A stretch of 64,000 nucleotides of DNA, from NCBI GenBank assembly GCA_964016885.1, contig OZ024746.1, positions 67,580,001-67,644,000 on the forward strand, read 5' to 3'. Positions within the stretch are counted from its first letter, which is position 1, and every line of letters starts with the position of its first letter. The translations under genes were made by a program, and so were the position numbers. This DNA comes from Eledone cirrhosa (lineage: Eukaryota). Shown here piece by piece: positions 26,466-64,000 of this stretch. Under the pieces are notes generated by a model, which was not told where the DNA came from, made no database searches, and worked only from the letters and a program-made list of their open reading frames with translations.

Positions 26466-26513
<48 letters not shown>

Positions 26514-26648
26514 AGTGTAATTTTCTACACAAAACGAAGGTTATAGAGAAAATTGAGGTTGGTAATGGCACATGGAATATATAAGAGACAGAATACTTTT
26601 TTGTGAAAAAACATAATTTTATAAGGTAAGGAAATAATAAAGGGTATA

Positions 26649-26698
26649 AAAAATGACCGGTTTCGATGGGTCTGCAAAAGCCATCTTTTCAAATGTTG
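26649..26698 (-). ncRNA. Variant (U3-A8) minimal hammerhead
   Basis: Reverse complement: TTGAAAA-gatgg..ccatc-GAAA-ccg-GTC. Confidence 0.65.
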
Positions 26699-27067
26699 AT
26701 TAATATTAAGAAAAATTAATAATACGAAGAGTTAAAATTTGAGATTTGAAAATTCAAGTATAAAATTCATTGTGGGATTTCATAGCAGTTTTCATCTAGG
26801 TAGCAACAACAGGTTGACTGCTGTGTCCCTTTCTGGTAGTGAATGAGAAGTTATTTGGGGTGTGGGTTATTTTATAAAGGTCAGATTTAGCAATCGCCAA
26901 CTGGCCAGCTGCTGGTCAGTGAGGGGGTGGAAGCAATATACATACACATATCTTCCTGTGGTGGGTAGGAGAGTGGAGCTTGATAGAAAGGGATTTAGTG
27001 CACTTACACCTATATATACACACATACCTTTATCCACACATACATACATATACATATACATATACAT

Positions 27068-27098
<31 letters not shown>

Positions 27099-27263
27099 CA
27101 CACATACATACACACATACATATACATACACACATACACACACACACATATATACACATACACACACATATATATATATACACACACACACACACATATA
27201 TATACATACACATACATCCAGATACACACATACATACACACACACACACATATATATATACGC

Positions 27264-27303
<40 letters not shown>

Positions 27304-27457
27304 CCACAAATACATACACACACACACACATATATATACATACACACATACAAACACACACACACACATATATATACACATACACACACATATACACACA
27401 CACACACACACGCTTATATATATATATATATACACATACGCATACATCCAGATACAC

Positions 27458-27492
<35 letters not shown>

Positions 27493-27891
27493 ATACATAC
27501 ATCCACATGCACACACATACACACACACACACATATACACATACATACACCCACACACAGAGAAATGGCCTCCAAATATATATATATATATATACATACA
27601 GACACATATTTTTTCCATAATATAAGAAGTTGGGACAGTGAAATTAAAATGCAAGTCATTCTGATCACATTGAGTTCTTCATGTAGATTGGGCCCCGCAA
27701 CCGACAGTGGTGAATTCTGTGTGCGCATATATATATAGATATATGTGTGTGCACGTGCAGGGTTTAACATGGATGTGTTGGTCACACAAAAGCATGGTCT
27801 GTCAACGAATAAACCTGATTCTACAGAATTGGTCTCTGGTCTTTAATAGTAGTGATTCCGTGCGTATGTGTGTTTATATTTTATGACAATT

Positions 27892-28824
27892 CTATTGGGG
27901 TGATAACCCGTTTAGTTTTGGTTTAAATTTGTTAAGGAATAGATTTTCTTTGTTTATTCTTTGTTGCTGTGTGAACGAATCTGAGCACTTGTAGAAGGGG
28001 AAGATTTTAAAGTTGGGTAGTGTCATTCCTGCGCAGTTCGCAATATGGCTGCTCAAGGGGATTTTTCTTGTGTTAGCGTCCCGGATTTGTTGGCGGTGGA
28101 TGGTCATTCTTTTGCGTAATGAGGTGCCCGTCTGTCCTATGTAGTTGTGTTTGCACCCACCGCAAGTTATTGCGTAAATCAAGTTCTCCGAGTTGCAGGT
28201 GAAATTGTTTTTTACTGTAAATGTTTGGCCATCTTTGAATGTAAATGTTTGTCCTTCAGTGAGGTAGAGGCACGTTCCACAGTTTGTTCTACCACATTTG
28301 GTAACTGTAGGGTTGAGGATTGGTTTGGGTATATTTGGTCCAGTGAGAATGCGTTTAAGTGATTTGGGTTGTCTTTTACTTTTAAGGATCTTGTGTGTTT
28401 CAAGAATAGACTTCATTTTTACATCTTTAAGTAGGATGGGGAGGTTTTTGTGTAGGTGATCAAACATTTCGGTATTTCTGGGGTTGAAAGTGGATACATA
28501 TGGCAGGGTGTTGAGTGTGGTTTTCTGTTTTGGATTGTTAAGTTGATGGGGATTTAGGTGTTTTGCCCTGTCTATTCCATTGTTGATTATTTCAAGTGGA
28601 AAGGCTCTTACGATAAGGGTGTCTTTTAGTTCCTTTAGTCTTTGCTCCCGTTTAGGTGGATCTGATACTATGGTACATATACGTTTGGCCAAATTGTAAG
28701 GAATGTTAAGTTTTGTATGTTTTGGGTGACATGATGTGAAAAAGAGGTATTGCTTGGAATCTGTGGGTTTATAGAATATATCTGTATCTAATTTCCCGTC
28801 TATTACAGAGATGAGAATATCCAA
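27892..28824 (-). pseudogene. PLE RT thumb + GIY-YIG endonuclease (5'-deleted, open frame)
   Basis: FYKPTD..CHPKH, CGRTNCGTC, LIYAITC..NYIGQT..RMTIH. Confidence 0.9.
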
Positions 28825-29250
28825 GAAGGCTAATTCCTTGAAGTTGTGTTGTCTTGTTCCAGTGCCATTTTCCGGATTTACGTGATCAGAATGACTTGTA
28901 TTTTAATTTCACTGTCCCAACTTCTTATATTATGGAAAAAATATGTGTCTGTATGTATATATATATATATATTTGGAGGCCATTTCTCTGTGTGTGGGTG
29001 TATGTATGTGTATATGTGTGTGTGTGTGTATGTGTGTGCATGTGGATGTATATATTGTGTGTGCGTGTGTGTGTGTGTGTGTATGTATGTGTGTATCTGG
29101 ATGTATGTGTATGTGTATATATATATATATATGCGTGTGTGTGTGTGTGTATATATATGTGTGTGTATGTGTATATATATGTGTGTGTGTGTGTATGTTT
29201 GTATGTGTGTATGTATATATATGTGTGTGTGTGTATATATGAGGGGGGTG

Positions 29251-29281
<31 letters not shown>

Positions 29282-29350
29282 ATATATATATGTGTGTGTG
29301 TGCGTGTGTGTATGTATGTGTGTATCTGGATGTATGTGTATGTATATATA

Positions 29351-29381
<31 letters not shown>

Positions 29382-29456
29382 GTGTGTGTGTATGTGTATA
29401 TATGTGTGTGTGTGTATGTGTGTATGTATATGTATGTGTGTGTGTATGTATGTGTG

Positions 29457-29495
<39 letters not shown>

Positions 29496-29856
29496 GTATA
29501 TGTATATGTATGTATGTGTGGATGAAGGTATGTGTGTATATATAGGTGTAAGTGCACTAAATCCCTTTCTATCACGCTCCACTCTCCTACCCACCACAGG
29601 AAGATATGTGTATGTATATTGCTTCCACCCCCTCACTGACCAGCAGCTGGCCAGTTGGCGATTGCTAAATCTGACCTTTATAAAATAACCCACACCCCAA
29701 ATAACTTCTCATTCACTACCAGAAAGGGACACAGCAGTCAACCTGTTGTTGCTACCTAGATGAAAACTGCTATGAAATCCCACAATGAATTTTATACTTG
29801 AATTTTCAAATCTCAAATTTTAACTCTTCGTATTATTAATTTTTCTTAATATTAAT

Positions 29857-29906
29857 CAACATTTGAAAAGATGGCTTTTGCAGACCCATCGAAACCGGTC
29901 ATTTTT
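29857..29906 (+). ncRNA. Variant (U3-A8) minimal hammerhead in 5' pLTR
   Basis: aacat-TTGAAAA-gatgg cttttgcagac ccatc-GAAA-ccg-GTC-atttt. Confidence 0.65.
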
Positions 29907-30074
29907 TATACCCTTTATTATTTCCTTACCTTATAAAATTATGTTTTTTCACAAAAAAGTATTCTGTCTCTTATATATTCCATGTGCCATTACCAACCTC
30001 AATTTTCTCTATAACCTTCGTTTTGTGTAGAAAATTACACTTTTCATATATACTAACCTACGCAAATCCGGAAA

Positions 30075-31341
30075 ATGGCACTGGAACAAGACAACACAAC
30101 TTCAAACTCCAATATAAATGAGGAAATCCTGAAAATCCTAAAAATGATAAATGGAAAACTCACCTTTCTGACTAAAAAACAGGATATACCCCAAACCACC
30201 ACACCGACTGACAACCAAATTTAGTTAAACGTTCAAAACGTATTCAACTCCATCGAAAAACTTATGAATACCAACACAGAACAAACGACATTGCTCCATA
30301 TCAAAAACCAAATGGGACACCTCTGGAAAAAAACATCTAAAAACCAGAAAATTCACTTTCTGGAATATGATAAAAAACCTCAACAAAGCTGGAATTTACC
30401 AAAAATGGATTAACACAACACCGATAGTTTTACCACGTAAATTCCAAATAAAGCATATTACAAACGAACCTGAACCAGAAAGAAAACTCCGTGAACAAAT
30501 GTCACTCAACAGGATAAACATGGAAATAGAACTCCTAAAATTAAGGGCCACCTCAAACGAGCAAGAGTATAAGGATACTGATAAAAATATGGAGGAAGAA
30601 TGCACTAAAAAGGCCGAGGGAACAACCCTACAAAATTGAATCAAATCGTGGAAACAGGACTGCGAGAATGCAGAAACTATTTCCCTTAAACGGTGTGAAA
30701 AATCCGAAAACTGGTTCCTCAAATATGAAGAAGACTTTAAAAGGACGCACCAAACAGGTAACCCCTTTATAAAGCATTTGAACATAACAAGAACTACAAC
30801 AGACACATTTACACCACCAAACCCAACACACACTAACCACAGGCACATCCCCCACCAACACAAACCAAATACGGCCAACTACACCAAAAGAAACACACCC
30901 AACCACCACAACACAGGTTTCCGTAGAAATGCCCCCTACATAAACCAACGACGAAATAACATAGATCCAACTCACAACACACACACCACATTCCTCAGAA
31001 GAAATCCACCCAGACCACTTGAAATCACAACAGAACTTACCCACAACCACACCAGACATCACCCTCAATCCAACAAAAGACAACCCCCCAACCTCAACAC
31101 TCTGTACCACAGAAATAACGCACCCAGACCACATGAACCAACAACAGAACCCTTGCTCATCAACAACCACAACACATACCACCCCCACCATCACATTCAC
31201 CCTCATGAAACAACAAGCTACAGACCCACACGCAACAGACCAACAAAATATAATCACACACAAAACTACATTCCTTTTTTAGGGAAAAGCCTGAGATACC
31301 AGGATACTCGATGGCCCCCCCTCAGGAGAAACCAAAAATAA
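30075..31341 (+). pseudogene. Disrupted upstream ORF of the PLE (helical/coiled-coil-like region, then basic His/Arg/Asn/Thr-rich region)
   Basis: ATG at 30075, stops at about 30222 and 30637, one frameshift at about 30340-30360; segments 30367-30639 and 30778-31341 share a frame. Confidence 0.6.
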
Positions 31342-33587
31342 TCAACCTCTCAAAGACACCTCTAACCAACACACAAATCAACATTTTAAGTAAGGGCCTG
31401 AAATTTACACCTACACCACGTAAACCAAACTTCCCCGAAATGAAGGATGACATCATGGAATACTGCCGAAAGCTGCGACTAACGGAATTCTTCCACAACG
31501 ACACCAACACTGAAGACGAATCACTGGTTAGAAATAAAAGCAATTTCTGCCCACAAAAGGGAAGAAATAAAGCACTGGACACGTACTGCGAACACATCAC
31601 CAACTTTCCCTATGAAAAAATTACAAATAAACACACGAAATCAAACCTATCTACACACGAATGGGAAGAATTATTCACACTTAGAAACAACCCTGAGTTA
31701 ACTATCAAAGAAGCCGATAAAGGCAGTACTGTTGTCATTATGAATACGGACTACTATAGGACCCTCGCACTTAACATTTTAGAAAACAACACATACTATG
31801 AAAAAACAGAAAACTACAAACACACCAAAACAATGGGGAACCTTTTGACCTTACTGAATAAATACCGCAACAGCTTAACCACAAAAGAGTTTAACTATAT
31901 AAGCCACTTCAAATGCAATACAAGCTCTTTTTACGGCTTACCGAAACTCCACAAATGTAAACCCATAAACGATGCATGTGACACCTCAACCAACAATTAC
32001 ATTGAACTAACACCACCAGAAGACCTAAAACTCAGGCCAATTATAGCAGGCCCTACATGTGAAACCCACAGACTTAGCAACTTTCTGGACATCCTACTGA
32101 AACCCTTTCTACAACATATACAGAGCTACATACGAGATGACCTTGACATGCTGAAACACCTCCCTAAAACAGTAAGTGCAAATACAATTCTTGTCTCCTT
32201 TGACGTAATAAACCTCTACACAAACATACCTCACAACTATGGAATAACAGCAGTCCAATACTGGCTTAACACACACCCATCAGAAATACCGACACGCATC
32301 AACACAGATTTTATCACTGACGGACTCCGCTTTATCCTACAAAATAACTACTTCACATTCAATGGTTCAACATACAGACAAGTATCAGGTACGGCAATGG
32401 GCACGAAAGTAGCACCCACATATGCCAACCTAGTCATGGGATTCCATGAACAACAAATATACAGTCAGTCCCTTCTCTTATTTGGAGACTCTTTCCACAC
32501 ACACCTCAAAGCCAATTGGAAAAGATATCTAGACGACTGCTTTATCCTATGGCAAGAAGACATGAACTCACTTACTACGTTTAAAAACATGATAAACAAC
32601 ATAGATAATAACATACAATTCACAATGGAATCCAATCCTAAGGAATTAGCCTTCTTGGATATTCTCATCTCTGTAATAGACGGGAAATTAGATACAGATA
32701 TATTCTATAAACCCACAGATTCCAAGCAATACCTCTTTTTCACATCAAGTCACCCAAAACATACAAAACTTAACATTCCTTACAATTTGGCCAAACGTAT
32801 ATGTACCATAGTATCAGATCCACCTAAACGGGAGCAAAGACTAAAGGAACTAAAAGACACCTTTATCTTAAGAGCCTTTCCACTTGAAATAATCAACAAT
32901 GGAATAGACAGGGCAAAACACCTAAATCCCCATCAACTTAACAATCCAAAACAGAAAACCACACTCAACACCCTGCCATATGTATCCACTTTCAACCCCA
33001 GAAATACCGAAATGTTTGATCACCTACACAAAAACCTCCCCATCCTACTTAAAGATGTAAAAATGAAGTCTATTCTTGAAACACACAAGATCCTTAAAAG
33101 TAAAAGACAACCCAAATCACTTAAACGCATTCTCACTGGACCAAATATACCCAAACCAATCCTCAACCCTACAGTTACCAAATGAGGTAGAACAAACTGT
33201 GGAACGTGCCTCTACCTCACTGAAGGACAAACATTTACATTCAAAGATGGCCAAACATTTACAGTAAAAAACAATTTCACCTGCAACTCGGAGAACTTGA
33301 TTTACGCAATAACTTGCGGTGGGTGCAAACACAACTACATAGGACAGACGGGCACCTCATTACGCAAAAGAATGACCATCCACCGCCAACAAATCCGGGA
33401 CGCTAACACAAGAAAAATCCCCTTGAGCAGCCATATTGCGAACTGCGCAGGAATGACACTACCCAACTTTAAAATCTTCCCCTTCTACAAGTGCTCAGAT
33501 TCGTTCACACAGCAACAAAGAATAAACAAAGAAAATCTATTCCTTAACAAATTTAAACCAAAACTAAACGGGTTATCACCCCAATAG
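31311..33587 (+). CDS. PLE reverse transcriptase + GIY-YIG endonuclease, single premature TGA at 33183
   Basis: LSKGLKF, ADKG, FYGLPKLHK, RPII, FDVINLYTNI, GTAMG, RYLDD, FLD, YKPT; LIY..YIG after the stop in the same frame. Confidence 0.93.
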
Positions 33588-34124
33588 AATTGTCATAAAA
33601 TATAAACACACATACGCACGGAATCACTACTATTAAAGACCAGAGACCAATTCTGTAGAATCAGGTTTATTCGTTGACAGACCATGCCTTTGTGTGACCA
33701 ACACATCCATGTTAAACCCTGCACGTGCACACACATATATCTATATATATATGCGCACACAGAATTCACCACTGTCGGTTGCGGGGCCCAATCTACATGA
33801 AGAACTCAATGTGATCAGAATGACTTGCATTTTAATTTCACTGTCCCAATTTCTTATATTATGGAAAAAATATGTGTCTGTATGTGTATATATATATATA
33901 TTTGGAGGCCATTTCTCTGTGTGTGGGTGTATGTATGTCTATATGTGTGTGTGTGTGTATGTGTGTGCATGTGGATGTATGTATTGTGTGTGCGTGTGTG
34001 TGTGTGTGTGTATGTTTGTATGTGTGTATGTATATATATGTGTGTGTGTGTGTCTGTATGTATGTGTGGGTGTGTGTGTGTGTGTGTATGTGTGTATGTA
34101 TATGTATGTGTGTATGTATGTGTG

Positions 34125-34179
<55 letters not shown>

Positions 34180-34534
34180 GTATATGTATGTATGTGTGGA
34201 TAAAGGTATGTGTGTATATATAGGTGTAAGTGCACTAAATCCCTTTCTATCACGCTCCACTCTCCTACCCACCACAGGAAGATATGTGTATGTATATTGC
34301 TTCCACCCCCTCACTGACCAGCAGCTGGCCAGTTGGCGATTGCTAAATCTGACCTTTATAAAATAACCCACACCCCAAATAACTTCTCATTCACTACCAG
34401 AAAGGGACACAGCAGTCAACCTGTTGTTGCTACCTAGATGAAAACTGCTATGAAATCCCACAATGAATTTTATACTTGAATTTTCAAATCTCAAATTTTA
34501 ACTCTTCGTGTTATTAATTTTTCTTAATATTAAT

Positions 34535-34584
34535 CAACATTTGAAAAGATGGCTTTTGCAGACCCATCGAAACCGGTCATTTTT
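34535..34584 (+). ncRNA. Variant (U3-A8) minimal hammerhead in 3' pLTR
   Basis: Identical to 29857-29906. Confidence 0.65.
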
Positions 34585-34681
34585 TATACCCTTTATTATT
34601 TCCTTACCTTATAAAATTATGTTTTTTCACAAAAAATATTCTGTCTCTTATATATTCCATGTGCCGTTACCAACCTCAATT

Positions 34682-34768
<87 letters not shown>

Positions 34769-45680: not shown

Positions 45681-46260
45681 TGTTGAGTGGTGTATAACCA
45701 GAAATTTCAACAAGCAGCAGTATTATGTTGCTTTCATTCATTCATTCATTCAGTACAATTAATTTAACAATCGAATAAACAGTACTAAACATACTAAATT
45801 TCTCTTCTGAATTTGTTTTGAATTGATCAAATAACATCATAAAAAGTCTACCCTCTATTCACCTCGTCAACCATCCACATTCCCTCCATCCCAGCCTCGC
45901 CCTTACATCAAATACAAAATTCATAACTATCAACCCACAGTCTCTCCATCCCTTCTTCACCTTTACATCACCTACAACATATATAAGCATCCATCTAACC
46001 TCAGTCTCCCCATCTCTACATCACCTTTATATCACCTATAATATAAATGTCCACCCACCTACCCACATTCCGGCCACCTCCTCATCACGCTTACATCAAC
46101 TATAATATGCATAACCAACCACAGTCCCTCCATCACTACCACATCCTTACATCATCTACCACATACATAACAACCCACCCACAGTCTCTCCATCACTACA
46201 TCACCCTTACATCACGTATAACATATATAACCACCTACAATCTCTCCATCCCTTCTTTAT

Positions 46261-49200
46261 AAATATATCATCTACCACATACGTAACAACCCAACCACAG
46301 TCGCTCCATCTCTACCACATCCTTATATCATCTACCACACACGTAACAACCCAACCACAGTCCCTCCATCTCTACCATATCATTGCATCATCTACCACAT
46401 ACGTAACAACCCAACCACAGTCCCTCCATCTCTACCATATCCTTATATCACCTACCACATACGTAACAACCCAACCACAGTCCCTCCATCTCTACCATAT
46501 CCTTGCATCATCTACCACATACGTAACAACCCAACCACAGTCCCTCCATCTCTACCATATCCTTATATCATCTACCACATACGTAGCAACCCAACCACAG
46601 TCCTTCCATCTCTACCATATCCTTATATCATCTACCACATACGTAACAACCCAACCACAGTCCTTCCATCTCTACCACATCCTTATATCATCTACCACAT
46701 ACGTAACAACCCAACCACAGTCCTTCCATCTCTACCACATCCTTACATCATCTACCACACACGTAACAACCCAACCACAGTCCCTCCATCTCTACCACAT
46801 CCTAACATCATCTACCATATACCTAACAACCCAACCACAGTCCCTCCATCTCTACCACATCCTTATATCATCTACCACATACGTAACAACCCTACCACAG
46901 TCCCTCCATCTCTACCACATCCTTGCATCATCTACTACATACGTAACAACCCAACCACAGTCCCTCCATCTCTACCACATCCTTACATATTCTACCACAT
47001 ACGTAACAACCCAACCACAGTCCCTCCATCTCTACCATATACTTGCATCATCTACCACATACGTAACAACCCAACCACAGTCCCTCCATCTCTACCATAT
47101 ACTTGCATCATCTACCACACACGTAACAACCCAACCACAGCCACTCCATCTCTACCACATCCTTACATCTTCTACCACATACGTAACAACCCAACCGCAG
47201 TCCCTCCATCTCTACCATATACTTGCATCATCTACCACATACGTAACAACCCAACCACAGTCCCTCCATCTCTACCATATACTTGCATCATCTACCACAT
47301 ACGTAACAACCCAACCACAGTCCCTCCATCTCTACCATATACTTGCATCATCTACCACATACGTAACAACCCAACGACAGCCCCTCCATCTCTACCACAT
47401 CCTTACATCTTCTACCACATACGTAACAACCCAACCACAGTCCCTCCATCTCTACCATATACTTGCATCATCTACCACATACGTAACAACCCAACCACAG
47501 TCCCTCCATCTCTACCATATACTTGCATCATCTACCACACACGTAACAACCCAACCACAGCCGCTCCATCTCTACCACATCTTTACATCATCTACCACAT
47601 ACGTAACAACCCAACCACAGCCCCTCCATCTCTACCACATCCTTACATCTTCTACCACATACGTAACAACCCAACCACAGTCCCTCCATCTCTACCACAT
47701 CCTTATATCATCTACCACATACGTAACAACCCAACCACAGTCCATCCATCTCTACCATATCCTTATATCATCTACCACATACGTAACAACCCAACCACAG
47801 ACCCTCCATCTCTACCATATCCTTGCATCATCTACCACATACGTAACAACCCAACCACAGTCCCTCCATCTCTACCATATCCTTGCATCATCTACCACAC
47901 ACGTAACAACCCAACCACAGTCCCTCCATCTCTACCACATCCTAACATCATCTACCATATACCTAACAACCCAACCACAGTCCTTCCATCTCTACCATAT
48001 CCTTATATTATCTACCACATACGTAACAACCCAACCACAGTCCCTCCATCTCTACCATATCCTTATATCATCTACCACATACGTAACAACCCAACCACAG
48101 CCCCTCCATCTCTACCATATCCTTACATTATCTACCACATACGTAACAACCCAACCACAGTCCCTCCATCTCTACCACATCCTTATATCATCTACCACAC
48201 ACGTAACAACCCAACCACAGCCCCTCCATCTCTACCACATCCTTATATCATCTACCACATACGTAACAACCCAGCCACAGTCCCTCCATCTCTACCATAT
48301 CCTTATATCATCTACCACATACGTAACAACCCAACCACAGTCCCTCCATCTCTACCATATCCTTGCATCATCTACCACACACGTAACAACCAAACCACAG
48401 CCCCTCCATCTCTACCATATCCTTACATCATCTACCACATACGTAACAACCCAACCACAGTCCCTCCATCTCTACCATATCCTTATATCATCTACCACAT
48501 ACGTAACAACCCAACCACAGTCCCTCCATCTCTACCACACACGTAACAACCCAAACACAGCCCCTCCATCTCTACCATATCCTTATATTATCTACCACAT
48601 ACGTAACAACGCAACCACAGTCCCTCCATCTCTACCATATCCTTATATCATCTACCACATACGTAACAACCCAACCACAGTCCCTCCATCTCTACCATAT
48701 CCTTGCATCATCTACCACACACGTAACAACCCAACCACAGTCCCTCCATCTCTACCACATCCTAACATCATCTACCATATACCTAACAACCCAACCACAG
48801 TCCTTCCATCTCTACCACATCCTTACATCATCTACCACATACGTAACAACCCAACCACAGTCCCTCCCTCTCTACCATATCCTTATATCATCTACCACAT
48901 ACGTAACAACCCAACCACAGTCCCTCCATCTCTACCACATCCTTATATCATCTACCACACACGTAACAACCCAACCACAGCCCCTCCATCTCTACCACAT
49001 CCTTATATCATCTACCACATACGTAACAACCCAACCACAGTCCCTCCATCTCTACCATATCCTTATATCATCTACCACATACGTAACAACCCAACCACAG
49101 TCCCTCCATCTCTACCATATCCTTGCATCATCTACCACACACGTAACAACCAAACCACAGCCCCTCCATCTCTACCATATCCTTACATCATCTACCACAT

Positions 49201-52200
49201 ACGTAACAACCCAACCACAGTCCCTCCATCTCTACCATATCCTTATATCATCTACCACATACGTAACAACCCAACCACAGTCCCTCCATCTCTACCATAT
49301 CCTTATATCATCTACCACATACGTAACAACCCAACCACAGTCCCTCCATCTCTACCACACACGTAACAACCCAAACACAGCCCCTCCATCGCTACCATAT
49401 CCTTATATTATCTACCACATACGTAACAACCCAACCACAGCCCCTCCATCTCTACCATATACTTGCATCATCTACCACACACGTAACAACCCAACACAGC
49501 CCCTCCATCTCTACCATATCCTTATATCATCTACCACATATGTAACAACCCAACCACAGCCCCTCCATCTCTACCACATCCTTACATCTTCTACCACATA
49601 CGTAACAACCCAACCACAGTCCTTCCATCTCTACCACATCCTTAAATCATCTACCACATACGTAACAACCCAACCACAGCCCCTCCATCTCTACCATATC
49701 CTTACATCATCTACCACATACGTAACAACCCAACCACAGTCCCTCCATCTCTACCATATCCTTGCATCATCTACCACATACGTAACAACCCAACCACAGT
49801 CCATCCATCTCTACCATATACTTACATCACCTACCACATACGAAACAACCCAACCACAGTCCTTCCATCTCTACCACATCCTTACATCTTCTACCATATA
49901 CCTAACAACCCAACCACAGTCCCTCCATCTCTACCACATCTTTATATCATCTACCACATACGTAACAACCCAACCACAGTCCCTCCATCTCTACCATATC
50001 CTTATATCATCTACCACATACGTAACAACCCAACCACAGTCCCTCCATCTCTACCATATCCTTGCATCATCTACCACATACGTAACAACCCAACCACAGT
50101 CCCTCCATCTCTACCATATCCTTGCATCATCTACCACATACGTAACAACCCAACCACAGCCCCTCCATCTCTACCAGATCATTATATCATCTACCACATA
50201 CGTAACAACCCAACCACGGTCCCTCCATCTCTACCATATCCTTGCATCATCTACCACATACGTAACAACCCAACCACAGCCCCTCCATCTCTACCACATC
50301 CTTATATCATCTACCACATACGTAACAACCCAACCACAGTCCCTTCATCTCTACCATATCCTTGCATCATCTACCACATACGTAACAACCCAACCACAGC
50401 CCCTCCATCTCTACCACATCTTTATATCATCTACCACATACGTAACAACCCAACCACAGTCCCTCCATCTCTACCACATCCTTGCATCATCTACTACATA
50501 CGTAACAACCCAACCACAGTCCCTCCATCTCTACCATATCCTTGCATCATCTACCACATACGTAACAGCCCAACCACAGCCCCTCCATCTCTACCATATC
50601 CTTATATCATCTACCACACACGTAACAACCCAACCACAGTCCCTCCATCTCTACCACATCCTTATATCATCTACCACATACGTAACAACCCAACCACAGT
50701 CCCTCCAACTCTACCACATCCTTATATTATCTACCACATACGTAACAGCCCAACCACAGTCCCTCCATCTCTACCACATCATTATATCATCTACCACATA
50801 CGTAACAACCCAACCACAGTCCCTCCATCTCTACCACATCTTTATATCATCTACCACATACGTAACAACCCAACCACAGTCCCTCCATCTCTACCACATC
50901 CTTATATCATCTACCACATACGTAACAACCCAACCACAGTCCCTCCATCTCTACCACATCCTTATATCATCTACCACATACGTAACAACCCAACCACAGT
51001 CCCTCCATCTCTACCACATCCTTATATCATCTACCACATACGTAACAACCCAACCACAGTCCCTCCATCTCTACCACATCCTTACATCATCTACCACATA
51101 CGTAACAACCCAACCACAGTCCTTCCATCTCTACCATATCCTTGCATCATCTACCACATACGTAACAACCCAACCACAGCCCCTCCATCTCTACCAGATC
51201 CTTATATCATCTACCACATACGTAACAACCCAACCACAGTCCCTCCATCTCTACCATATCCTTATATCATCTACCACATACGTAACAACCCAACCACAGT
51301 CCCTCCATCTCTACCATATCCTTGCATCATCTACCACATACGTAACAACCCAACCACAGTCCCTCCATCTCTACCATATCCTTATATCATCTACCACATA
51401 CGTAACAACCCAACCACAGTCCCTCCACCTCTACCATATCCTTGCATCATCTACCACATACGTAACAACCCAACCACAGTCCCTCCATCTCTACCACATC
51501 CTTATATCATCTACCACATACGTAACAACCCTACCACAGTCCCTCCATCACTACCAGATCCTTATATCATCTACCACATACGTAACAACCCAACCACAGT
51601 CCCTCCATCTCTACCACATCCTTATATCATCTACCACATACGTAACAACCCAACCACAGTCCCTCCATCTCTACCACATCCTTATATCATCTACCACATA
51701 CGTAACAACCCAACCACAGCCCCTCCATCTCTACCAGATCCTTATATCATCTACCACATACGTAACAACCCAACCACAGTCCCTCCATCTCTACCACATC
51801 CTTACATCATCTACCACATACGTAACAACCCAACCACAGTCCCTCCATCTCTACCATATCCTTGCATCATCTACCACATACGTAACAACCCAACCACAGC
51901 CCCTCCATCTCTACCAGATCCTTATATCATCTACCACATACGTAACAACCCAACCACAGTCCCTCTATCTCTACCATATACTTGCATCATCTACCACATA
52001 CGTAACAACCCAACCACAGTCCCTCCATCTCTACCATATCCTTGCATCGTCTACAACATACGTAACAACCCAACCACAGTCCCTCCATCTCTACCACATC
52101 CTTATATCATCTACCACATACGTAACAACCCAACCACAGTCCCTCCATCTCTACCATATCCTTACATCATCTACCATATACCTAACAACCCAACCACAGC

Positions 52201-55200
52201 CCCTGCATCTCTACCACATCCTAACATCATCTACCACATACGTAACAACCCAACCACAGTCCCTCCATCTCTACCATATCCTTGCATCATCTACCACATA
52301 CGTAACAACCCAACCACAGTCCCTCCATCTCTACCATATCCTTGCATCATCTACCACATGCGTAACAACCCAACCACAGCCCCTCCATCTCTACCATATC
52401 CTTGCATCATCTACCACATACGTAACAACCCAACCACAGTCCCTCCATCTCTACCATATCCTTATATCATCTACCACATACGTAAAAACCCAACGACAGT
52501 CCTTCCATCTCTACCATATCCTTATATCATCTACCACATACGTAACAATAAAACCACAGTCCCTCCATCTCTACCATATCCTTATATCATCTAGCACATA
52601 CGTAACAACCCAACCACAGCCTCTCCATCTCTACCAGATCCTTATATCATCTACCACATACGTAACAACCCAACCACAGTCCCTCCATATCTACCACATC
52701 CTTATATCATCTACCACATACGTAACAACCCAACCACAGTCCTTCCATCTCTACCATATCCTTATATCATCTACCACATACGTAACAACCCAACCACAGT
52801 CCCTCCATCTCTACCACATCCTTATATCATCTACCACATACGTAACAACCCAACCACAGTCCTTCCATCTCTAACATATCCTTATATCATCTACCACATA
52901 CGTAACAACCCAACCACAGTCCCTCCATCTCTACCATATCCTTACATCATCTACAAACATACGTAACAACCCAACCACTGTCCCTCCATCTCTACCACTT
53001 CTTTATATCATCTACCACATACGTAACAACCCAACCACAGTCCCTCCATCTCTACCATATCCTTATATCATCTACCACATACGTAACAACCCAACCACAG
53101 TCCCTCCATCTCTACCACATCCTTATATCATCTACCACATACGTAACAACCCAACCACAGTCCCTCCATCTCTACCACATCCTTACATCTTCTACCACAT
53201 ACGTAACAACCCAACCACAGTCCCTCCATCTCTACCATATCCTTATATCATCTACCACATACGTAACAACCCAACCACAGTCCCTCCATCTCTACCATAT
53301 CCTTGCATCATCTACCACACACGTAACAACCCAACCACAGTCCCTCCATCTCTACCACCCACGTAACAACCCAACCACAGTCGCTCCATCTATACCACAT
53401 CCTTATATCATCTACCACACACGTAACAACCCAACCACAGTCCTTCCATCTCTACCACATCCTTATATCATCTACCACATACGTATCAACCCAACCACAG
53501 TCCCTCCATCTCTACCACATTCTTACATCATCTACCACATACGTAACAACCCAACCACAGTTCCTCCATCTCTACCACATCCTTACATCTTCTACCACAT
53601 ACGTAACAACCCAACCACAGTCCCTCCATCTCTACCACATCATTATATCATCTACCACATACGTAACAACCCAACCACAGTTCCTCCATCTCTACCACAT
53701 CCTTACATCTTCTACCACATACGTAACAACCCAACCACAGTCCCTCCATCTCTACCACATCCTTATATCATCTACCACATACGTAACAACCCAACCACAG
53801 TCCCTCCATCTCTACCACATCCTTATATCATCTACCACATACGTAACAACCCAACCACAGCCCCTCCATCTCTACCATATCCTTATATCATCTACCACAT
53901 ACGTAACACCCAACCACAGTCCTTCCATCTCTACCATATCCTTACATCATCTACCACATACGTAACAACCCAACCACAGTCCCTCCATCTCTACCACATC
54001 CTTACATCATCTACCACTTGCGTAACAACCCAACCACAGTCCCTCCATCTCTACCACATCCTTATATCATCTACCACATACGTAACAACCCAACCACAGT
54101 CCTTCCATCTCTACCATATCCTTACATCATCTACCACATGCGTAACAACCCAACCAAAATCCCTCTATCTCTACCACATCCTTATATCATCTACCACATA
54201 CGTAACAACCCAACCACAGTCCCTCCATATCTACCACATCCTTATATCATCTACCACATACGTAACAACCCAACCACAGTCCTTCCATCTCTACCATATC
54301 CTTATATCATCTACCACATACGTAACAACCCAACCACAGTCCCTCCATCTCTACCACATCCTTATATCATCTACCACATACGTAACAACCCAACCACAGT
54401 CCTTCCATCTCTAACATATCCTTATATCATCTACCACATACGTAACAACCCAACCACAGTCCCTCCATCTCTACCATATACTTGCATCATCTACCACATA
54501 CGTAACAACCCAACCACAGTCCCTCCATCTCTACCATATACTTGCATCATCTACCACATACGTAACAACCCAACGACAGCCCCTCCATCTCTACCACATC
54601 CTTACATCTTCTACCACATACGTAACAACCCAACCACAGTCCCTCCATCTCTACCATATACTTGCATCATCTACCACATACGTAACAACCCAACCACAGT
54701 CCCTCCATCTCTACCATATACTTGCATCATCTACCACACACGTAACAACCCAACCACAGCCGCTCCATCTCTACCACATCTTTACATCATCTACCACATA
54801 CGTAACAACCCAACCACAGCCCCTCCATCTCTACCACATCCTTACATCTTCTACCACATACGTAACAACCCAACCACAGTCCATCCATCTCTACCATATC
54901 CTTATATCATCTACCACATACGTAACAACCCAACCACAGACCCTCCATCTCTACCATATCCTTGCATCATCTACCACACACGTAACAACCCAACCACAGC
55001 CCCTCCATCTCTACCACATCCTAACATCTTCTACCACATACGTAACAACCCAACCACAGTCCCTCCATCTCTACCACATCCTTATATCATCTACCACATA
55101 CGTAACAACCCAACCACAGTCCATCCATCTCTACCATATCCTTATATCATCTACCACATACGTAACAACCCAACCACAGACCCTCCATCTCTACCATATC

Positions 55201-58200
55201 CTTGCATCATCTACCACACACGTAACAACCCAACCACAGTCCCTCCATCTCTACCACATCCTAACATCATCTACCATATACCTAACAACCCAACCACAGT
55301 CCTTCCATCTCTACCATATCCTTATATTATCTACCACATACGTAACAACCCAACCACAGTCCCTCCATCTCTACCATATCCTTATATCATCTACCACATA
55401 CGTAACAACCCAACCACAGCCCCTCCATCTCTACCATATCCTTACATTATCTACCACATACGTAACAACCCAACCACAGTCCCTCCATCTCTACCACATC
55501 CTTATATCATCTACCACACACGTAACAACCCAACCACAGCCCCTCCATCTCTACCACATCCTTATATCATCTACCACATACGTAACAACCCAGCCACAGT
55601 CCCTCCATCTCTACCATATCCTTATATCATCTACCACATACGTAACAACCCAACCACAGTCCCTCCATCTCTACCATATCCTTGCATCATCTACCACACA
55701 CGTAACAACCAAACCACAGCCCCTCCATCTCTACCATATCCTTACATCATCTACCACATACGTAACAACCCAACCACAGTCCCTCCATCTCTACCATATC
55801 CTTATATCATCTACCACATACGTAACAACCCAACCACAGTCCCTCCATCTCTACCACACACGTAACAACCCAAACACAGCCCCTCCATCTCTACCATATC
55901 CTTATATTATCTACCACATACGTAACAACCCAACCACAGTCCCTCCATCTCTACCATATCCTTATATCATCTACCACATACGTAACAACCCAACCACAGT
56001 CCCTCCATCTCTACCATATCCTTGCATCATCTACCACACACGTAACAACCCAACCACAGTCCCTCCATCTCTACCACATCCTAACATCATCTACCATATA
56101 CCTAACAACCCAACCACAGTCCTTCCATCTCTACCACATCCTTACATCATCTACCACATACGTAACAACCCAACCACAGTCCCTCCCTCTCTACCATATC
56201 CTTATATCATCTACCACATACGTAACAACCCAACCACAGTCCCTCCATCTCTACCACATCCTTATATCATCTACCACACACGTATCAACCCAACCACAGC
56301 CCCTCCATCTCTACCACATCCTTATATCATCTACCACATACGTAACAACCCAACCACAGTCCCTCCATCTCTACCATATCCTTATATCATCTACCACATA
56401 CGTAACAACCCAACCACAGTCCCTCCATCTCTACCATATCCTTGCATCATCTACCACACACGTAACAACCAAACCACAGCCCCTCCATCTCTACCATATC
56501 CTTACATCATCTACCACATACGTAACAACCCAACCACAGTCCCTCCATCTCTACCATATCCTTATATCATCTACCACATACGTAACAACCCAACCACAGT
56601 CCCTCCATCTCTACCACACACGTAACAACCCAAACACAGCCCCTCCATCGCTACCATATCCTTATATTATCTACCACATACGTAACAACCCAACCACAGC
56701 CCCTCCATCTCTACCATATACTTGCATCATCTACCACACACGTAACAACCCAACACAGCCCCTCCATCTCTACCATATCCTTATATCATCTACCACATAT
56801 GTAACAACCCAACCACAGCCCCTCCATCTCTACCACATCCTTACATCTTCTACCACATACGTAACAACCCAACCACAGTCCTTCCATCTCTACCACATCC
56901 TTAAATCATCTACCACATACGTAACAACCCAACCACAGCCCCTCCATCTCTACCATATCCTTACATCATCTACCACATACGTAACAACCCAACCACAGTC
57001 CCTCCATCTCTACCATATCCTTGCATCATCTACCACATACGTAACAACCCAACCACAGTCCATCCATCTCTACCATATACTTACATCACCTACCACATAC
57101 GAAACAACCCAACCACAGTCCTTCCATCTCTACCACATCCTTACATCTTCTACCATATACCTAACAACCCAACCACAGTCCCTCCATCTCTACCACATCT
57201 TTATATCATCTACCACATACGTAACAACCCAACCACAGTCCCTCCATCTCTACCATATCCTTATATCATCTACCACATACGTAACAACCCAACCACAGTC
57301 CCTCCATCTCTACCATATCCTTGCATCATCTACCACATACGTAACAACCCAACCACAGTCCCTCCATCTCTACCATATCCTTGCATCATCTACCACATAC
57401 GTAACAACCCAACCACAGCCCCTCCATCTCTACCAGATCATTATATCATCTACCACATACGTAACAACCCAACCACGGTCCCTCCATCTCTACCATATCC
57501 TTGCATCATCTACCACATACGTAACAACCCAACCACAGCCCCTCCATCTCTACCACATCCTTATATCATCTACCACATACGTAACAACCCAACCACAGTC
57601 CCTTCATCTCTACCATATCCTTGCATCATCTACCACATACGTAACAACCCAACCACAGCCCCTCCATCTCTACCACATCTTTATATCATCTACCACATAC
57701 GTAACAACCCAACCACAGTCCCTCCATCTCTACCACATCCTTGCATCATCTACTACATACGTAACAACCCAACCACAGTCCCTCCATCTCTACCATATCC
57801 TTGCATCATCTACCACATACGTAACAGCCCAACCACAGCCCCTCCATCTCTACCATATCCTTGCATCATCTACCACACACGTAACAACCAAACCACAGCC
57901 CCTCCATCTCTACCATATCCTTACATCATCTACCACATACGTAACAACCCAACCACAGTCCCTCCATCTCTACCATATCCTTATATCATCTACCACATAC
58001 GTAACAACCCAACCACAGTCCCTCCATCTCTACCACACACGTAACAACCCAAACACAGCCCCTCCATCTCTACCATATCCTTATATTATCTACCACATAC
58101 GTAACAACCCAACCACAGTCCCTCCATCTCTACCATATCCTTATATCATCTACCACATACGTAACAACCCAACCACAGTCCCTCCATCTCTACCATATCC

Positions 58201-61200
58201 TTGCATCATCTACCACACACGTAACAACCCAACCACAGTCCCTCCATCTCTACCACATCCTAACATCATCTACCATATACCTAACAACCCAACCACAGTC
58301 CTTCCATCTCTACCACATCCTTACATCATCTACCACATACGTAACAACCCAACCACAGTCCCTCCCTCTCTACCATATCCTTATATCATCTACCACATAC
58401 GTAACAACCCAACCACAGTCCCTCCATCTCTACCACATCCTTATATCATCTACCACACACGTATCAACCCAACCACAGCCCCTCCATCTCTACCACATCC
58501 TTATATCATCTACCACATACGTAACAACCCAACCACAGTCCCTCCATCTCTACCATATCCTTATATCATCTACCACATACGTAACAACCCAACCACAGTC
58601 CCTCCATCTCTACCATATCCTTGCATCATCTACCACACACGTAACAACCAAACCACAGCCCCTCCATCTCTACCATATCCTTACATCATCTACCACATAC
58701 GTAACAACCCAACCACAGTCCCTCCATCTCTACCATATCCTTATATCATCTACCACATACGTAACAACCCAACCACAGTCCCTCCATCTCTACCACACAC
58801 GTAACAACCCAAACACAGCCCCTCCATCGCTACCATATCCTTATATTATCTACCACATACGTAACAACCCAACCACAGCCCCTCCATCTCTACCATATAC
58901 TTGCATCATCTACCACACACGTAACAACCCAACACAGCCCCTCCATCTCTACCATATCCTTATATCATCTACCACATATGTAACAACCCAACCACAGCCC
59001 CTCCATCTCTACCACATCCTTACATCTTCTACCACATACGTAACAACCCAACCACAGTCCTTCCATCTCTACCACATCCTTAAATCATCTACCACATACG
59101 TAACAACCCAACCACAGCCCCTCCATCTCTACCATATCCTTACATCATCTACCACATACGTAACAACCCAACCACAGTCCCTCCATCTCTACCATATCCT
59201 TGCATCATCTACCACATACGTAACAACCCAACCACAGTCCATCCATCTCTACCATATACTTACATCACCTACCACATACGAAACAACCCAACCACAGTCC
59301 TTCCATCTCTACCACATCCTTACATCTTCTACCATATACCTAACAACCCAACCACAGTCCCTCCATCTCTACCACATCTTTATATCATCTACCACATACG
59401 TAACAACCCAACCACAGTCCCTCCATCTCTACCATATCCTTATATCATCTACCACATACGTAACAACCCAACCACAGTCCCTCCATCTCTACCATATCCT
59501 TGCATCATCTACCACATACGTAACAACCCAACCACAGTCCCTCCATCTCTACCATATCCTTGCATCATCTACCACATACGTAACAACCCAACCACAGCCC
59601 CTCCATCTCTACCAGATCATTATATCATCTACCACATACGTAACAACCCAACCACGGTCCCTCCATCTCTACCATATCCTTGCATCATCTACCACATACG
59701 TAACAACCCAACCACAGCCCCTCCATCTCTACCACATCCTTATATCATCTACCACATACGTAACAACCCAACCACAGTCCCTTCATCTCTACCATATCCT
59801 TGCATCATCTACCACATACGTAACAACCCAACCACAGCCCCTCCATCTCTACCACATCTTTATATCATCTACCACATACGTAACAACCCAACCACAGTCC
59901 CTCCATCTCTACCACATCCTTGCATCATCTACTACATACGTAACAACCCAACCACAGTCCCTCCATCTCTACCATATCCTTGCATCATCTACCACATACG
60001 TAACAGCCCAACCACAGCCCCTCCATCTCTACCATATCCTTATATCATCTACCACACACGTAACAACCCAACCACAGTCCCTCCATCTCTACCACATCCT
60101 TATATCATCTACCACATACGTAACAACCCAACCACAGTCCCTCCATCTCTACCACATCCTTATATTATCTACCACATACGTAACAGCCCAACCACAGTCC
60201 CTCCATCTCTACCACATCATTATATCATCTACCACATACGTAACAACCCAACCACAGTCCCTCCATCTCTACCACATCTTTATATCATCTACCACATACG
60301 TAACAACCCAACCACAGTCCCTCCATCTCTACCACATCCTTATATCATCTACCACATACGTAACAACCCAACCACAGTCCCTCCATCTCTACCACATCCT
60401 TATATCATCTACCACATACGTAACAACCCAACCACAGTCCCTCCATCTCTACCACATCCTTATATCATCTACCACATACGTAACAACCCAACCACAGTCC
60501 CTCCATCTCTACCACATCCTTACATCATCTACCACATACGTAACAACCCAACCACAGTCCTTCCATCTCTACCATATCCTTGCATCATCTACCACATACG
60601 TAACAACCCAACCACAGCCCCTCCATCTCTACCAGATCCTTATATCATCTACCACATACGTAACAACCCAACCACAGTCCCTCCATCTCTACCATATCCT
60701 TATATCATCTACCACATACGTAACAACCCAACCACAGTCCCTCCATCTCTACCATATCCTTGCATCATCTACCACATACGTAACAACCCAACCACAGTCC
60801 CTCCATCTCTACCATATCCTTATATCATCTACCACATACGTAACAACCCAACCACAGTCCCTCCACCTCTACCATATCCTTGCATCATCTACCACATACG
60901 TAACAACCCAACCACAGTCCCTCCATCTCTACCACATCCTTATATCATCTACCACATACGTAACAACCCTACCACAGTCCCTCCATCACTACCAGATCCT
61001 TATATCATCTACCACATACGTAACAACCCAACCACAGTCCCTCCATCTCTACCACATCCTTATATCATCTACCACATACGTAACAACCCAACCACAGTCC
61101 CTCCATCTCTACCACATCCTTATATCATCTACCACATACGTAACAACCCAACCACAGCCCCTCCATCTCTACCAGATCCTTATATCATCTACCACATACG

Positions 61201-64000
61201 TAACAACCCAACCACAGTCCCTCCATCTCTACCACATCCTTACATCATCTACCACATACGTAACAACCCAACCACAGTCCCTCCATCTCTACCATATCCT
61301 TGCATCATCTACCACATACGTAACAACCCAACCACAGCCCCTCCATCTCTACCAGATCCTTATATCATCTACCACATACGTAACAACCCAACCACAGTCC
61401 CTCCATCTCTACCATATACTTGCATCATCTACCACATACGTAACAACCCAACCACAGTCCCTCCATCTCTACCATATCCTTGCATCGTCTACAACATACG
61501 TAACAACCCAACCACAGTCCCTCCATCTCTACCACATCCTTATATCATCTACCACATACGTAACAACCCAACCACAGTCCCTCCATCTCTACCATATCCT
61601 TACATCATCTACCATATACCTAACAACCCAACCACAGCCCCTGCATCTCTACCACATCCTAACATCATCTACCACATACGTAACAACCCAACCACAGTCC
61701 CTCCATCTCTACCATATCCTTGCATCATCTACCACATACGTAACAACCCAACCACAGTCCCTCCATCTCTACCATATCCTTGCATCATCTACCACATGCG
61801 TAACAACCCAACCACAGCCCCTCCATCTCTACCATATCCTTGCATCATCTACCACATACGTAACAACCCAACCACAGTCCCTCCATCTCTACCATATCCT
61901 TATATCATCTACCACATACGTAAAAACCCAACGACAGTCCTTCCATCTCTACCATATCCTTATATCATCTACCACATACGTAACAATAAAACCACAGTCC
62001 CTCCATCTCTACCATATCCTTATATCATCTAGCACATACGTAACAACCCAACCACAGCCTCTCCATCTCTACCAGATCCTTATATCATCTACCACATACG
62101 TAACAACCCAACCACAGTCCCTCCATATCTACCACATCCTTATATCATCTACCACATACGTAACAACCCAACCACAGTCCTTCCATCTCTACCATATCCT
62201 TATATCATCTACCACATACGTAACAACCCAACCACAGTCCCTCCATCTCTACCACATCCTTATATCATCTACCACATACGTAACAACCCAACCACAGTCC
62301 TTCCATCTCTAACATATCCTTATATCATCTACCACATACGTAACAACCCAACCACAGTCCCTCCATCTCTACCATATCCTTACATCATCTACAAACATAC
62401 GTAACAACCCAACCACTGTCCCTCCATCTCTACCACTTCTTTATATCATCTACCACATACGTAACAACCCAACCACAGTCCCTCCATCTCTACCATATCC
62501 TTATATCATCTACCACATACGTAACAACCCAACCACAGTCCCTCCATCTCTACCACATCCTTATATCATCTACCACATACGTAACAACCCAACCACAGTC
62601 CCTCCATCTCTACCACATCCTTACATCTTCTACCACATACGTAACAACCCAACCACAGTCCCTCCATCTCTACCATATCCTTATATCATCTACCACATAC
62701 GTAACAACCCAACCACAGTCCCTCCATCTCTACCATATCCTTGCATCATCTACCACGCACGTAACAACCCAACCACAGTCCCTCCATCTCTACCACCCAC
62801 GTAACAACCCAACCACAGTCGCTCCATCTATACCACATCCTTATATCATCTACCACACACGTAACAACCCAACCACAGTCCTTCCATCTCTACCACATCC
62901 TTATATCATCTACCACATACGTATCAACCCAACCACAGTCCCTCCATCTCTACCACATTCTTACATCATCTACCACATACGTAACAACCCAACCACAGTT
63001 CCTCCATCTCTACCACATCCTTACATCTTCTACCACATACGTAACAACCCAACCACAGTCCCTCCATCTCTACCACATCATTATATCATCTACCACATAC
63101 GTAACAACCCAACCACAGTTCCTCCATCTCTACCACATCCTTACATCTTCTACCACATACGTAACAACCCAACCACAGTCCCTCCATCTCTACCACATCC
63201 TTATATCATCTACCACATACGTAACAACCCAACCACAGTCCCTCCATCTCTACCACATCCTTATATCATCTACCACATACGTAACAACCCAACCACAGCC
63301 CTTCCATCTCTACCATATCCTTATATCATCTACCACATACGTAACACCCAACCACAGTCCTTCCATCTCTACCATATCCTTACATCATCTACCACATACG
63401 TAACAACCCAACCACAGTCCCTCCATCTCTACCACATCCTTACATCATCTACCACTTGCGTAACAACCCAACCACAGTCCCTCCATCTCTACCACATCCT
63501 TATATCATCTACCACATACGTAACAACCCAACCACAGTCCTTCCATCTCTACCATATCCTTACATCATCTACCACATGCGTAACAACCCAACCAAAATCC
63601 CTCTATCTCTACCACATCCTTATATCATCTACCACATACGTAACAACCCAACCACAGTCCCTCCATATCTACCACATCCTTATATCATCTACCACATACG
63701 TAACAACCCAACCACAGTCCTTCCATCTCTACCATATCCTTATATCATCTACCACATACGTAACAACCCAACCACAGTCCCTCCATCTCTACCACATCCT
63801 TATATCATCTACCACATACGTAACAACCCAACCACAGTCCTTCCATCTCTAACATATCCTTATATCATCTACCACATACGTAACAACCCAACCACAGTCC
63901 CTCCATCTCTACCATATACTTGCATCATCTACCACATACGTAACAACCCAACCACAGTCCCTCCATCTCTACCATATACTTGCATCATCTACCACATACG
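46261..64000 (+). repeat. 60-bp tandem satellite array, about 295 monomers, running off the window end
   Basis: Consensus tctaccacatacgtaacaacccaaccacagtccctccatctctacca(c/t)atcctt(a/g)(t/c)atca; degenerate edge from about 45860. Confidence 0.98.

Follow-up and report, generated by a model that had tools for sequence, protein, structure and literature searches.

A very probable -1 ribosomal frameshift between ORF1 and the reverse transcriptase-endonuclease ORF of a Neptune-like Penelope element in Eledone cirrhosa

Introduction

Penelope-like elements (PLEs) are presented, in the accessible text of PMC6431247, as having either a single ORF with an endonuclease (EN) or two ORFs without one. 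The window analysed here, a 64,000-nt stretch of Eledone cirrhosa DNA (contig OZ024746.1), contains an EN-bearing PLE in which ORF1 overlaps the reverse transcriptase (RT)-endonuclease ORF in the -1 frame. How is the RT of such an element produced? A sequence-only reading of the window had proposed a gag-pol-like two-ORF strategy, with -1 frameshifting on a slippery heptamer helped by a downstream hairpin. The two-ORF -1 strategy is strongly supported by the comparisons reported below, from which we infer it, but the hairpin was not upheld.

Results

The Penelope-like element lies on the plus strand of the window, where two pseudo-LTRs (pLTRs) bracket ORF1 and ORF2. The 5' pLTR (28882-30013, plus strand) has a (TA/TG)n tract inside and is defined by direct repeats D13 and D14 with 33811-34690, the 3' pLTR (plus strand), which ends in a (TA)n tract. 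ORF1 occupies 30058-31341 on the plus strand, with ATG at 30075 and the stop codon at 31339-31341. ORF2 (31254-33587, plus strand) is in the -1 frame to ORF1 and encodes RT, a C-x4-C-x2-C linker, and a GIY-YIG endonuclease, with Pfam matches to RVT_1 and, at the C terminus, to GIY-YIG. An inverted, 5'-truncated copy of the 3' part of the element (RT end, linker, GIY-YIG, and pLTR) is situated at 26503-28839 on the minus strand, as judged from inverted repeats I1 (27578-28839 versus 32640-33901, 99%) and I2 and from an ORF at 27892-28902 on the minus strand. Direct and inverted repeats are thus both present, as in the pLTRs of EN+ PLEs. In the translated endonuclease, CxxC stands between LIY and YIG, and two His residues complete the CCHH motif. 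The C-x4-C-x2-C linker between RT and EN, found in intact copies and read in the minus-strand copy, corresponds to the CX2-5CxxC linker given in the accessible text of PMC8557442 as a mark of Neptune common to Nematis. By these sequence features the element is classified as a Neptune-like, endonuclease-bearing Penelope retrotransposon, with an RT tree that holds no named reference elements. It is not of the EN-minus Athena/Terminon type, as GIY-YIG sits in the RT ORF. Intact copies of three families have two overlapping ORFs and not the single ORF of canonical EN+ PLEs; the single ORF was treated as a descriptive trait and was not used to exclude the element from PLEs. No hammerhead was found among Rfam matches to E 1 at 5 loci, a search that minimal PLE hammerheads may escape.

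The window copy is decayed. A single inserted base and two stop codons break its ORF1 upstream, and a TGA at 33183 in the RT-EN ORF is found in this copy only. Intact copies have an ORF1 of 427 codons and an RT-EN ORF of 777 codons, with an overlap of 85 nt. Elsewhere in the window, at about 46000-64000, GC skew is about -0.82 and GC 0.45, which suggests a C-rich telomere-like or satellite array.

The RT frame is opened by TAA at 31251-31253. The heptamer T TTT TTA (31275-31281, plus strand), the candidate -1 frameshift site, stands in X XXY YYZ phase with ORF1 (CCT TTT TTA GGG), where it encodes Phe-Leu; the RT frame, which is the -1 frame, reads Phe-Phe-Arg. An ATG follows at 31311. These positions and the phase had been given in the sequence-only reading and were all confirmed. 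The family DNA search gave 627 candidates, of which 40 were scored and the 30 best-scoring copies fetched; the heptamer is kept in all 30 of them, and the whole ORF1 in 12. An unbiased pattern search recognized 177 junctions; among the 100 listed, 94 have T6A, five a substitution, and one T5. Two further families in the genome, with ORF1 of 409 and 455 codons and RT 57 and 60% identical, share the layout and have CAT TTT TTA G in ORF1 phase. In neither does an AUG precede the conserved RT start; their first RT-frame Met is at codon 162 and 69. The in-phase heptamer is present at 48/54 of their loci with RT (drawn from 60, some places fetched twice), and the remaining six have local mutations or indels. 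The heptamer and its phase are therefore no quirk of the window copy, and a conserved in-phase X XXY YYZ heptamer inside a -1 overlap, as expected for programmed -1 frameshifting, is present.

An indel or an assembly error in the T-run was considered as another source of the two frames. The genome contains no T7 copy, T6A prevails at the listed junctions, and contigs of runs X1-X3 are without an insertion, so this explanation was dropped. In a broader form, the source copies or their transcripts would have one continuous ORF, restored by homopolymer slippage in DNA or during transcription through an extra U in the heptamer or an extra C in the C7 run at 31315-31321 (plus strand). The C7 run is unstable across genomic copies, and certain expansions fuse ORF1 with RT-EN into an ORF of 1138-1181 codons; among 14 copies chosen for long frames, eight are fused by C-run expansion and one by deletion. 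Furthermore, the heptamer is one T longer in one contig, at depth 4.9, of run X4 (another sample, kind unknown); the added base, at window position 31274, would bring ORF1 and RT in frame and is not in the assembly. Against slippage, a pure run of at least eight C occurs in 16/112 copies with no frame bias (seven fuse, nine do not), the expansions lie in mixed subfamily backgrounds without a common diagnostic variant, and the least diverged copies are unfused. Other families have no C run, yet T6 is exact in all of them, and the X4 rows listed include no family B insertion. C-run expansion is ordinary homopolymer instability, and a continuous source ORF is very improbable. Expansions of C7 reach +16 (loci L204-L212 and L218-L226), with intact-looking single ORFs of 1176-1181 codons at L207 and L208.

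Junctions in other organisms were surveyed in DNA of 80 metagenome and 7 MAG loci. RT homologs with source names come from bivalves or symbiont bins. Animal PLE RT genes stand under bacterial symbiont or MAG names (P0168, P0175, P0230, P0258; L185-L190) and are probably host DNA binned with bacteria. A quick IQ-TREE tree of 84 RT rows, none of them a named reference, places the three genomic families inside an 18-row clade (SH-aLRT 98). The RT N-terminal motif was found at 16 loci, a set that takes in members of this clade together with five short, closely related sequences outside the tree. An in-phase U UUU UUA or U UUU UUG lies in a -1 overlap at 13 of these 16; the three loci without it are L120, where the contig ends, L163, a decayed relative of L105 with T5G, and L183, which has no upstream ORF. 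As L110/L112 and L106/L111 are close pairs, the 13 loci represent about 11 families. The same site occurs at L160 and L176, loci of another clade with a different ORF1 (that of L160 is unrelated). At these 15 loci the RT frame opens 0-45 nt ahead of the heptamer. In-phase U6R in the overlaps exceeds chance: it was counted at 3 of 9154 RT codon positions as background, versus one per overlap in 15 overlaps that total 315 positions and were picked after the site was seen. Single-ORF PLEs of the same tree lack the site. A large clade, made up of 40 PLEs at a greater distance, mostly has an N-terminal extension in the RT frame that is long and led by Met, with no U6R overlap.

L160 (1911-3839) and L176 (1-975) have an ORF1 ending in a segment that resembles a GDSL/SGNH esterase when judged by eye. 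U UUU UUA is common to both, and their stops lie 10 and 11 codons further along. The esterase-like ORF1 of L176 had no Pfam or PDB match and, used as query, was not found in the genome of the element.

The upstream ORF encodes a conserved protein that is helical according to its predicted structure, in which AlphaFold places confident long helices at 52-230 followed by a disordered tail. Its homologs form 462 clusters at 50% identity. ORF1 had no Pfam, Atlas, or Foldseek match, its structural matches were generic helical bundles only (best Z 9.1, rmsd 6.4, 124 aligned), and a search of viral contigs gave no result. The ORF1 alignment is too variable for locus searches. Phe-Leu is present within the last 45 aa in 59 of 79 homologs of at least 300 aa (own ORF1 included) versus 8 of 158 control windows upstream; 15 of the 79 have neither Phe-Leu nor Phe-Phe there. 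At the residue ahead of Phe-Leu, K, E, Q, M, and W are all absent (0/59, against 21% expected from their share of the tails), which fits the T-ending codon required by the heptamer. Candidates of 948-2705 aa contained no fused ORF1-RT protein, a weak test, and the 150 best-matching of the 462 ORF1 homolog clusters do not exceed 541 aa.

The T-rich motif could also be read as a 3' splice acceptor, with an intron ending at the AG at 31282 whose removal would connect the RT ORF with an exon upstream. The stretch TTTTTTAG suits an acceptor and is present at 10/15 loci, which leaves room for a family-specific splice, and spliceosomal introns are carried by PLEs according to the accessible parts of PMC8557442 and PMC3846280. 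As a general explanation splicing did not hold, for L105, L114, L116, L176, and L185 have six T in the same phase without AG, and AG is excluded by 19/59 Phe-Leu tails, in which the codon of the next residue cannot start with G. Nor would splicing need Phe-Leu to be encoded across the site by ORF1. CAG is common in splice acceptors, but the seventh base of the site varies from A to G and never gives CAG. A short motif list, which makes a weak test, revealed no consensus-like in-phase donor in ORF1 of the three genomic families. No GT-AG joints were listed in contigs of four runs, whose kind is unknown, so that they are uninformative on splicing. An intron at this place is the least credible of the alternatives, and highly improbable.

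Separate translation of ORF2 from the ATG at 31311 would proceed by leaky scanning, from a shorter transcript, or by reinitiation after the ORF1 stop 28 nt downstream. This ATG is in the RT frame just ahead of the conserved RT start and is found in copies of the family, and many predicted RT homologs have a Met shortly ahead of the RT motif. Nevertheless, there is no AUG between heptamer and RT start at 13/15 loci, both sister families included, and the first Met of many homologs is inside the conserved motif. The ATG is itself part of CGA TGG at the codon equivalent to the ORF1 stop of other elements, and separate initiation leaves the heptamer unexplained; its probability is accordingly very small. 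Both splicing and separate initiation thus fail as a general rule, because AG is lacking at five and AUG at 13 of the 15 sites. Judged from the conservation of the site in sequence comparison, programmed -1 ribosomal frameshifting at U UUU UUA very probably yields the RT, fused to ORF1 and EN.

A stem-loop or pseudoknot 5-9 nt past the heptamer is a mark of programmed -1 sites, and no conserved one was recognized here, with pseudoknots sought by eye. Two pairings had been suggested for the window. For the CCTG-agatac-CAGG hairpin, folding of 31282-31400 showed no advantage over shuffled sequence (z -0.50 to +0.53). The alternative CCTGAG/CTCAGG pairing needs a G at 31295 that is private to the window copy, as 29/29 other copies have A. 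A fold z below -2 was reached at only 1/15 junctions, and the 50 nt of family C, at 0 kcal/mol, do not fold. With z about 0 in the window family, a private base, and one structured junction in 15, the hairpin was rejected as stimulator. No stimulator is evident for the window family (fold z about 0, stop gap 19 codons).

A separate clade, in which no endonuclease was seen, has 10 loci with A AAA AAC, -1 overlaps of about 600-640 nt, and an ORF1 of 600-800 aa. Its loci include L139, L140, L157, L162, L164, L168, L170, L171, and L184, with heptamers at, for example, L139:2361 and L184:1811. Nine aligned loci share an H-type pseudoknot with 126/126 cells paired and 10 compensatory cells, a score reached by 0/500 shuffles; the pseudoknot was drawn by eye from these same sequences. 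Its recovery indicates that the approach sees structure where one exists, and it agrees with the Fig. 1 legend of PMC8557442, according to which a frameshift with a pseudoknot can set ORF1 apart.

The distance from the slippery Leu to the ORF1 stop was examined in 64 long ORF1 homologs with Phe-Leu or Phe-Phe near the end. None has a gap shorter than 10 codons, 22 have exactly 10, and four have 11, with 1/10 residues identical in the spacer between Leu and stop. In the null, the +1 frame of RT DNA, 53% of gaps are shorter and 3.6% equal to 10. When proteins of all lengths are included, the exact gap occurs in 29/95 and a shorter tail in 4/95, and those four (126-274 aa) are probably fragments. 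Since 20 of the 22 proteins with exact spacing are inside one 30-row clade (eight changes, FastTree tree), binomial values make the cases look more independent than they are. U is also scarce in the 30 nt that directly follow the heptamer (9.6% versus 21-29%), and this alone makes early stops less probable. No clear second spacing peak, as for two queued ribosomes, was found.

At the DNA level, the ORF1 stop is the 11th codon past Leu at 7/15 loci and at L142, which has A AAA AAC and no EN seen; the 10-codon spacing hence recurs with another heptamer (L142) and with an unrelated ORF1 (L160). The base after the stop is C, a weak termination context, in 6/8 such loci. At precisely the stop-equivalent codon, TGG is found in the window family, in family B, and in L107, all of which appear to have lost the stop. 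In the window this TGG (31312-31314, plus strand) is the 11th ORF1 codon past the slippery Leu and overlaps the non-conserved ATG at 31311; Trp is followed by Pro-Pro, and the stop comes nine codons further on, which gives a gap of 19 codons. Trp at this position is seen in 5/56 longer tails, mostly in one subclade, and is there likely due to descent.

Discussion

If frameshifting operates as proposed, most ribosomes would end at the ORF1 stop and yield an abundant coiled-coil protein, presumably for particle or RNP assembly, while a minority would slip back one base on Phe-Leu and continue into RT. A 10-codon gap is the minimal separation of collided yeast ribosomes in the accessible part of 10.1101/2023.02.01.526718. 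Across the clade, a ribosome paused at the ORF1 stop 10 codons downstream might block its follower just as it sits on the heptamer, a step that we consider plausible but still somewhat short of an even chance. For E. coli reporters, the accessible text of PMC6815119 describes a stop-stalled ribosome promoting -1 shifting of the trailing one, and in SARS-CoV-2 stop position tunes shifting by another route (PMC8168617, likewise in part). We therefore put forward only tentatively that this EN-bearing PLE clade uses a natural, collision-driven, structure-free -1 frameshift with the ORF1 stop 10 codons past U UUU UUA/G. As the window family has Trp at the stop position and its stop nine codons later, it would depend on a different pause or on the slipperiness of the heptamer itself.

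The element resembles Neptune in RT with a C-terminal GIY-YIG, the CX2-5CxxC linker, pLTRs with an inverted partial copy, and the (TA)n context, and an upstream ORF is noted in some Neptunes. It differs from canonical EN+ PLEs and from killifish Neptune in ORFs that overlap at -1 with a conserved U6A/G. PLEs without EN that use a frameshift with a pseudoknot, which we take to be of the Athena/Terminon type, also have a coiled-coil ORF1 ahead of RT, a -1 overlap, and a slippery heptamer. The clade of the element differs from these by its endonuclease, its U6A/G heptamer, the shortness of the overlap, the lack of a conserved structure, and the constraint on its stop position. The HIV-1 frameshift site has a stable downstream stem-loop. 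The element shares with HIV-1 gag-pol the identical heptamer (U UUU UUA is named as the HIV site in the accessible part of PMC5009743) and a structural ORF ahead of the enzyme ORF, but has no conserved stem-loop and lacks a protease, an integrase, and a true LTR. As in the mechanism suggested here, the E. coli collision reporters (PMC6815119) and SARS-CoV-2 (PMC8168617) have their -1 shifting modulated by a 0-frame stop placed at a given distance, as far as the accessible text of each goes. The former are engineered and bacterial, with a stop-stalled ribosome one footprint ahead as the stimulator and a peak at a 9-codon spacer, and in the latter the stop aids pseudoknot refolding, whereas the present case, if real, is natural, eukaryotic, and structure-free.

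The literature on EN+ elements of the Neptune clade includes PMC8557442, PMC12602865 on killifish Neptune, and PMC5408684 on esterase-bearing Neptune-like PLEs, each in its accessible part. Killifish Neptune has two non-overlapping ORFs, with no linking mechanism given in that part of PMC12602865. The literature searched contains no description of a slippery site for Neptune or for EN+ PLEs of other kinds, although the PMC8557442 figure, Repbase, or Arkhipova 2006/2007/2017 may note one. One searchable supplement of PMC8557442 has no Neptune frameshift, the first 300,000 characters of PMC5009743 do not mention Penelope, and the accessible parts of 10.64898/2026.07.22.740005 and PMC3846280 contain nothing on slippery sites of EN+ PLEs. 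Structure-free, stop-spaced frameshifting in EN-bearing elements was not found in the literature searched either. PLE frameshifting with a pseudoknot is already published (PMC8557442, Fig. 1 legend). The suggestion that a two-ORF strategy is new for EN+ PLEs was somewhat overstated in view of that legend and of the two ORFs of killifish Neptune (PMC12602865, in its accessible part).

The finding changes the gene model of widespread animal retrotransposons that are usually drawn as single-ORF, and it adds a conserved, unannotated ORF1 family of 462 clusters with no Pfam match. The RT-EN of these PLEs is probably produced solely in the form of a trans-frame fusion, a point of relevance to rebuilding PLE transposition assays and to annotating mollusc genomes. 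If the collision reading is true, RT output would climb with the ribosome load on ORF1. If stop spacing is the stimulator, these elements would be a natural eukaryotic case of ribosome collisions as a recoding signal, shown so far, in the literature searched, in engineered bacterial reporters, and here with dozens of natural variants.
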